From IMG/VR virus record IMGVR_UViG_2537562192_000019: 31,970 bases of DNA, one strand, 5' to 3'. This document shows, piece by piece, positions 14,956 to 15,822 of the stretch. Position 1 is the stretch's first letter, and each line of letters opens with the position of its first letter. The notes below the pieces were generated by a model. The model was not told the origin of the DNA. It made no database searches and was given only the letters and a program-made list of their open reading frames with translations. Source of the DNA: a virus (Duplodnaviria; Heunggongvirae; Uroviricota; Caudoviricetes). Made by a program: the position numbers and the translations under genes.

Positions 14956-15822
14956 CCGCCAGACTAAGTGACAGCCACACGGTTGTCAGCCTGTGTTCTG
15001 CTCTGGAAATACACCGCAGCAGTTACCGGTACTGGCGAAAACGACGCGATACGGTTAATCCGGCACGAGTCAGGTTGTGCAGCGAAATACGCCGGGCGTG
15101 GAACCAAAGTCGGGGCTCTGCGGGCGCGCGCACTCTGGCTGAAATGCTGACTCAAAACGGCGTCCCGATGAGCCGTTACCGTGCCGGACGTCTGATGAAA
15201 TATCTGAACCTGAGCAGTTGTCAGCCCGGAAAACATCAGTATAAAAATGCCCGTCAGGAGCATACCAGCCTGCCGAATCTGCTTGAGCGTCAGTTCGCAG
15301 TACCGGAGCCAGACCGGGTATGGTGTGGAGATATTACGTATCTCTGGGGCAGGAAATCGCTGGTGCTATCTGGCGGTTGTTATGGATCTTTTTGCCCGCA
15401 GGGTTATCGGCTGGAGTCTGTCAGCGCATGCCGATACCGCACTGATAAGCAGTGCCCTGCGGATGGCCTATGAGACGCGTGGCCAACCCCGGGATGTCGT
15501 GTTCCATAGCGACCAGGGAAGCCAGTATACAGGCCTTAAATATCAACAACTTCTCTGGCGTTGCAGAATAAATCAAAGCGTCAGTCGGCGGGGAAACTGC
15601 TGGGATAACAGCCCCATGGAACGCTTCTTCCGCAGTCTGAAAACAGAATGGGTGCCAACGAATGGTTACGCAGGCAAGGACGAGGCCCGGCAGCAAATTA
15701 ATGATTACATATTGAACTACTACAACAGCGTCAGACCTCACCATTATAACGGTGGGCTGACGCCGGAAGAGTCAGAGAACAGATACCATTTTTACTGTAA
15801 AACCGTGGCCAATATTACTTGA
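14907..15822 (+). pseudogene. IS3-family transposase OrfB (DDE integrase catalytic domain), internally frameshifted by an extra G in a G-run (15346..15349)
   Basis: The -1 frame is open from the slippery site through ...[11 protein letters not shown] (15345..15347), then GGGG disrupts it. The rest ([22 protein letters not shown]...HSDQGSQYT...[15 protein letters not shown]...) is in another frame (ORF 15247..15822). GGG instead of GGGG would give a continuous OrfB. Confidence 0.8.

Follow-up and report, generated by a model that had tools for sequence, protein, structure and literature searches.

An extra G in orfB of an IS3-family insertion sequence lodged in tail gene T of a lambda-like prophage: a frameshift private to one draft record

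IS911 is the best-studied element of the IS3 family. It encodes OrfA and, via a -1 frameshift at an A AAA AAG heptamer, the fusion protein OrfAB; its ends are of the TG...CA type, it generates a 3-bp target duplication, and its transposase has a DD(35)E catalytic core. The insertion sequence described here shares every one of these features with IS911, at about 65% nucleotide identity, and we take the C-terminus of its OrfA and its left-end sequence to resemble those of IS911 as well. Elements of the IS3 family transpose through figure-of-eight and circle intermediates, and their transposases act preferentially in cis; by homology the circle-intermediate mechanism of IS911, together with this cis preference, would be expected to apply to the present element.

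A closer relative is ISEc31 (the name is that given by RefSeq annotation), likewise an IS3-family element of ~1258 bp with the same layout of orfA, A6G frameshift site and orfB. Over the whole element, RefSeq-labelled ISEc31 copies share 91.8-92.8% nucleotide identity with the element studied here, and one of them is also inserted in the corresponding tail-gene region of lambda-like prophages (locus L007). This identity lies under the level at which ISfinder treats elements as isoforms, which we take to be about 95%, and RefSeq labels the protein only as an 'IS3 family transposase'. Judged by its sequence, the element is thus a close sibling of ISEc31 and not ISEc31 itself. Among phage records, two partial matches to the element were found, none of them named. 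A further comparison is with defective, non-autonomous IS copies in general. Like these, the copy studied here has intact inverted repeats and a target duplication, a transposase gene with a single frameshift, and an expected dependence on a sibling. Unlike them, it owes its defect to a single base, is otherwise identical to active copies, is known from one draft record and may be non-biological.

The DNA analysed, hereafter the window, is 31,970 nucleotides long, and the genes and signals described below for the element and its insertion site lie on its plus strand. The element occupies positions 14572-15830 (1259 bp, against 1258 bp and GGG in reference copies). A repeat search delimited its left inverted repeat, TGTAGTGGCACACTAAATTTGGCCAC, at 14572-14597 and its right inverted repeat, ending in GACCACTACA, at 15805-15830; these imperfect 26-nt repeats, which open with TGTAGTGG and close with CCACTACA, are 77% complementary, give the element its TG...CA termini and are both intact. 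The two-ORF layout of the IS3 family is present. The intact orfA (14644-14955) encodes a 103-aa helix-turn-helix DNA-binding protein matching the Pfam families HTH_Tnp_1 and HTH_28. Near its end, the A AAA AAG heptamer at 14904-14910 is the predicted site of the programmed -1 frameshift that would link orfA to orfB; RefSeq annotates a 'programmed frameshift' in otherwise identical copies.

Direct reading of both frames bore out exactly the claim of an earlier note, made from the sequence of the window, that orfB is itself frameshifted by an extra G. The sequence at 15340-15352 is ATCTCTGGGGCAG, in which GGGG occupies 15346-15349, a run one G longer than in all other copies examined and situated 774 bp from the left end of the element and 481 bp from the right. 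It breaks orfB directly past the first catalytic aspartate, between the first and second catalytic residues. The N-terminal part of orfB, in the -1 frame relative to orfA, runs from 14910 to 15347 (OrfAB residues 90-235) and includes a Pfam HTH_21 match (residues 145-197) and the first catalytic aspartate, D230, at 15330-15332; W235, five residues further on, is the last residue before the extra G. In this frame (frame 0) translation leaves the native orfB sequence after 15347 and continues out of frame through 41 codons and a stop (15348-15473, the stop at 15471-15473), so that OrfAB as recorded is a 276-aa product of 235 native and 41 unrelated residues. The remaining part of orfB (15349-15822) is displaced by +1 into frame 1, where it reads ...HSDQGSQYT...NSPMERFF... 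to a stop at 15820-15822; it encodes OrfAB residues 236-392, including D290 (15511-15513) and E326 (15619-15621).

Deleting one G yields an unbroken 392-aa OrfAB with 100% identity to the protein of the intact copy at locus L003 (RefSeq WP_085968792.1), and the catalytic domain becomes continuous, as the earlier note had proposed for GGG. The corrected protein matches the IS3-family profile NF033516 with 360.6 bits over profile positions 1-368 of 369 (cut-off 160 bits), a full-length match that requires the removal of one G, the recorded sequence encoding two pieces. It also contains the Pfam rve integrase-core domain (residues 222-319, 94.5 bits) and a catalytic triad of D230, D290 and E326, the last two separated by 35 residues, i.e., the DD(35)E spacing. 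The 276-aa product lacks D290 and E326, two of the three DDE residues, and a Pfam search of it returned no rve match. Provided that the extra G is real, the copy is not autonomous as recorded, in that its predicted reading frames give no single product with all three catalytic residues. The inability of this copy to make OrfAB in cis, which the earlier note had deduced, therefore holds for the sequence as recorded.

The element has inserted into T, one of the lambda-type tail chaperone genes G/GT, in a lambda-like prophage. The G ORF spans 13887-14309 and the T-frame ORF begins at 14291, with Pfam matches to Phage_TAC_2 and Phage_tail_T on these genes; upstream of the insertion, a G GGA AAG slippery heptamer at 14285-14291 can be read directly, which we take to be the lambda G/GT shift site. 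The 5' part of T (14291-14571, from the ORF list and an empty-site alignment with locus L006) is cut by the element, its ORF extending into the left inverted repeat to 14587, and the 3' remnant occupies 15831-15987 (ORF 15832-15987). In L003, RefSeq annotates these pieces as 'phage tail assembly protein T, incomplete' (so too in L004) and 'phage tail assembly protein T, missing N-terminus'. The insertion is flanked by a 3-bp target duplication, GAT, at 14569-14571 and 15831-15833, in keeping with the 3-4 bp of the IS3 family. In L006 the uninterrupted target reads GTGCTGAT|GCAGAAAG, and lambda-like phages with the uninterrupted target span 739 bp here, equal to 2001 - 1259 - 3. The prophage occupies the Qin site and has pinQ and ydfJ to its right; the ydfJ product is common (1,004 blocks of a public assembly collection).

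A second gene of this prophage is also altered in a homopolymer. The large terminase ORF (4891-6858) has A7 at 6609-6615 where lambda-like relatives have A8, which puts the last ~70 codons into another frame, so that the product has an altered C-terminus and 655 aa instead of 641 aa. The exact 655-aa product is unique to the source record. The 100-nt context of the A7 run was matched exactly in four other complete Escherichia coli genomes, and in the one of these that was fetched it belongs to a Qin-site prophage whose gene is annotated as 'frameshifted'.

The comparison with other copies of the element, which the earlier note had recommended, gave a uniform answer. Full-length matches in complete E. 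coli genomes measure 1258 bp, with one gap relative to the window, and all fetched copies, at ten other loci, read GGG; the GGGG that the earlier note had considered possible in reference copies is likewise absent from them. A 100-nt query centred on the run matched 4,207 places in 5,426 complete E. coli genomes without recovering the GGGG allele: the best of these places match over 99 nt at 99.0% identity, and therefore none of the 4,207 has GGGG. Copies at the very same insertion point are equally informative. The junction of T with the element is found at the same position in six complete genomes, and in the two that were fetched (L003 and L004) the run is GGG and the annotated transposase gene is intact; the extra G is the sole difference between the element in the window and the L003 copy. 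Three more contigs share the junction and span the site, all with GGG. The junction ORF occurs in 63 blocks of the public assembly collection, and every junction contig read that spans the site has GGG, with the sole exception of the source contig. At the protein level, the 132-aa frameshift product forms a singleton cluster among ~15 billion proteins (EIH44033.1, from E. coli 99.0741, draft contig AEZR02000050.1). An exact protein look-up of the 191-aa downstream ORF returned no record, gene callers having taken a shorter ORF of 107 aa. The GGGG run is thus private to one draft record and is not a property of the element or of the insertion.

Several of the contigs compared illustrate how assemblies behave around this element. 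Short-read contigs at five loci (L024-L027 and L031) stop at the boundary of the element, which fits the presence of several copies in the lineage. The source contig, a 173-kb draft contig, passes straight through it, which stands out against these short-read breaks. A 5.4-Mb contig (L020, JBDIFJ010000001.1) carries the same insertion with an element of 1262 bp and with tail genes Z and H fragmented; it gives the impression of an assembly rich in indel errors and illustrates how easily artefactual frameshifts arise.

Our preferred explanation, to which we assign a probability of about 0.5, is that the extra G is a secondary, strain-private change affecting a single copy of an IS3-family element that is otherwise active. 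A fully competent element inserted into T of the lambda-like prophage; its competence at the time of insertion is shown by the sister genomes, since those with the identical insertion have an intact transposase gene and so reveal an element active on landing. Later, in the lineage of E. coli 99.0741, the G3 run in orfB would have grown to G4, most simply by replication slippage. The recorded copy would still make OrfA and, after the normal -1 shift, only the 276-aa OrfAB, which would retain the first aspartate together with the regions for DNA binding and multimerisation and would be incapable of cleavage or strand-transfer catalysis. With both ends intact, the result would be a non-autonomous copy, able to move only by means of a sibling's transposase acting in trans, which is inefficient in the IS3 family, or after reversion of G4 to G3. 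Over 19.2 kb, a single substitution and not one indel separate the source contig from its closest relative (L032), which argues that the contig is not generally ridden with homopolymer errors. The prophage, moreover, was already defective, with T disrupted and the terminase frameshifted, so that further decay would be neutral.

The principal competing explanation, for which we would put the chances somewhat short of even, is that over-calling of the homopolymer has given the draft consensus one G too many and that the true copy in 99.0741 is intact and autonomous, as in the sister strains. The GGGG run is confined to a single draft record from the early 2010s, the rest of the element is identical to intact copies, and a change in homopolymer length alone is what errors of pyrosequencing or of a long-read consensus classically produce. 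As in such errors, a gene without other faults is disrupted by one base in a mononucleotide run, in one record only, and a second change of the kind, A7 for A8 in the terminase, lies 8.7 kb away; from 6523 to 16614 (about 10 kb), these two indels are the only differences separating the source from L003. Both occur in sequence that is repeated in related genomes, namely two near-identical prophage modules and a multi-copy IS. Consensus calling and polishing are weakest in repeats, and because Illumina assemblies break at the element, a contig that spans it had to cross them. However, an extension from three to four bases is short for a consensus-level homopolymer error, and the absence of indels against the near-identical L032 is unlike a draft troubled by such errors. 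The A7 terminase allele also occurs in the four complete genomes noted above, the fetched one with a RefSeq 'frameshifted' label, so such changes may be real or recurrent. In addition, the frameshift product is present on one contig only, which argues against one collapsed consensus having been placed at several positions of the IS.

The tally of private changes shifted as relatives were added. Private indels stood to private substitutions at 2/7, then at 2/5, and finally at one indel to one substitution, numbers too small to weigh for or against an error; the count of indels fell once A7 proved to be present in a more distant Qin prophage (L028) as well. With these relatives included, the GGGG indel and one substitution are the only changes over 38 kb absent from all fetched relatives, which suits the over-call explanation. 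A search via the unique tape-measure protein for an independent read-derived assembly of 99.0741 recovered only the GenBank contig. Between a real slippage mutation and a homopolymer miscall, the odds are near even.

If the extra G is a real mutation in an active element, as we prefer, its consequences can be sketched from related systems. A truncated IS911 OrfAB comprising residues 1-149 binds the IS ends (PMC3299598). By analogy with this and with work on IS2, the truncated OrfAB of the window should still bind the ends of its element, with no capacity for transposition catalysis. The truncated protein (residues 1-235 plus the 41-residue tail) keeps the helix-turn-helix and multimerisation regions, and for this reason it could, if made, occupy the ends of sibling copies or multimerise with their transposase and so act as a trans inhibitor that damps transposition of this IS family in the strain; we regard such a role as very improbable. 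Mobilisation of the recorded copy in trans is plausible, since both of its inverted repeats are intact and the closely related genome of 2012EL-2448 has four matches to this part of the element. The earlier note had gone further and called the copy a fixed insertion unless complemented by another. Its dependence on trans complementation stands for the copy as recorded; the description of the insertion itself as fixed does not, since sister copies of the same insertion are intact.

Two other explanations fare much worse. In the first, which we hold to be very improbable, the frame is restored during expression, by a +1 ribosomal shift or by transcriptional slippage at the G-run, to give a full-length transposase. 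Rare codons can promote +1 shifts, and a rare AGG codon does follow the run (CTC TGG GGC AGG), although this is circumstantial. Programmed recoding would predict a conserved site, and on this point it was rejected: all ten other loci have GGG and no GGGG was found in the 5,426 complete genomes. Intact copies, moreover, have no need of a second shift, a four-base G-run is far below the tract lengths known for transcriptional slippage, and re-pairing in the +1 frame by tRNA-Trp on UGG or tRNA-Gly on GGC would, from the sequence, probably be poor. The second holds that the element ancestrally or normally has GGGG and naturally encodes split OrfB fragments, and that the reference reading is wrong. 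It found no support in this analysis and has a negligible probability, refuted as it is by matching complete-genome copies of 1258 bp that have GGG and an annotated single transposase with one programmed frameshift, and by domain searches in which only the GGG version yields a contiguous rve domain and a full-length IS3-family match.

The feature is of an ordinary kind, a dead or mis-sequenced copy of a common, otherwise active IS3-family element. The tail gene being broken already, the extra G changes nothing more for the prophage; the most it does is to identify a single IS copy of a single strain as non-autonomous, in a prophage that the same element had already disabled. For annotation, the case teaches that a single-base homopolymer change in one draft record is not to be read as biology until reads confirm it.

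The surroundings of the insertion have a history of their own. In comparisons with L003 and L006, positions 157-31970 of the window form a block mosaic of two prophages of the related strain 2012EL-2448. The flanks (157-4513 and from 19006 onwards) correspond to its Qin-site prophage, and the centre (4593-18517), which includes the element, matches its DLP12-site prophage, save for a short Qin-like patch at 17188-17794. Misassembly, which would have spoken for an artefact, was considered as the origin of this mosaic and rejected: an independent Illumina contig (L031) is contiguous for the T remnant, a tape-measure gene of 853 aa and the ydfJ flank. Because L031 places the disrupted T in a Qin-site prophage in some strains, resident lambdoid prophages are likely to have exchanged sequence. 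Within the side tail fibre gene, at 26033-26120, seven substitutions match the DLP12-site prophage (L003) and not the surrounding Qin-site type, a patch that looks like a small gene-conversion tract.

Other insertions are found close to this one. In strain 13E0767 (L008) the same element lies within gene G, and in strain PRO_A-1401-6M-A_ESBL (L007) ISEc31 lies directly after T, each an independent insertion; the G/T tail chaperone region may be an insertion hotspot, or may simply offer sites that are tolerated in defective prophages. Lastly, a further contig (L023, LPWW01000252.1, 3282-6100) shares the left junction of T with the element and has an autotransporter gene on the right in place of the remaining part of T, an arrangement that could be either an IS-mediated rearrangement or a chimeric assembly join.
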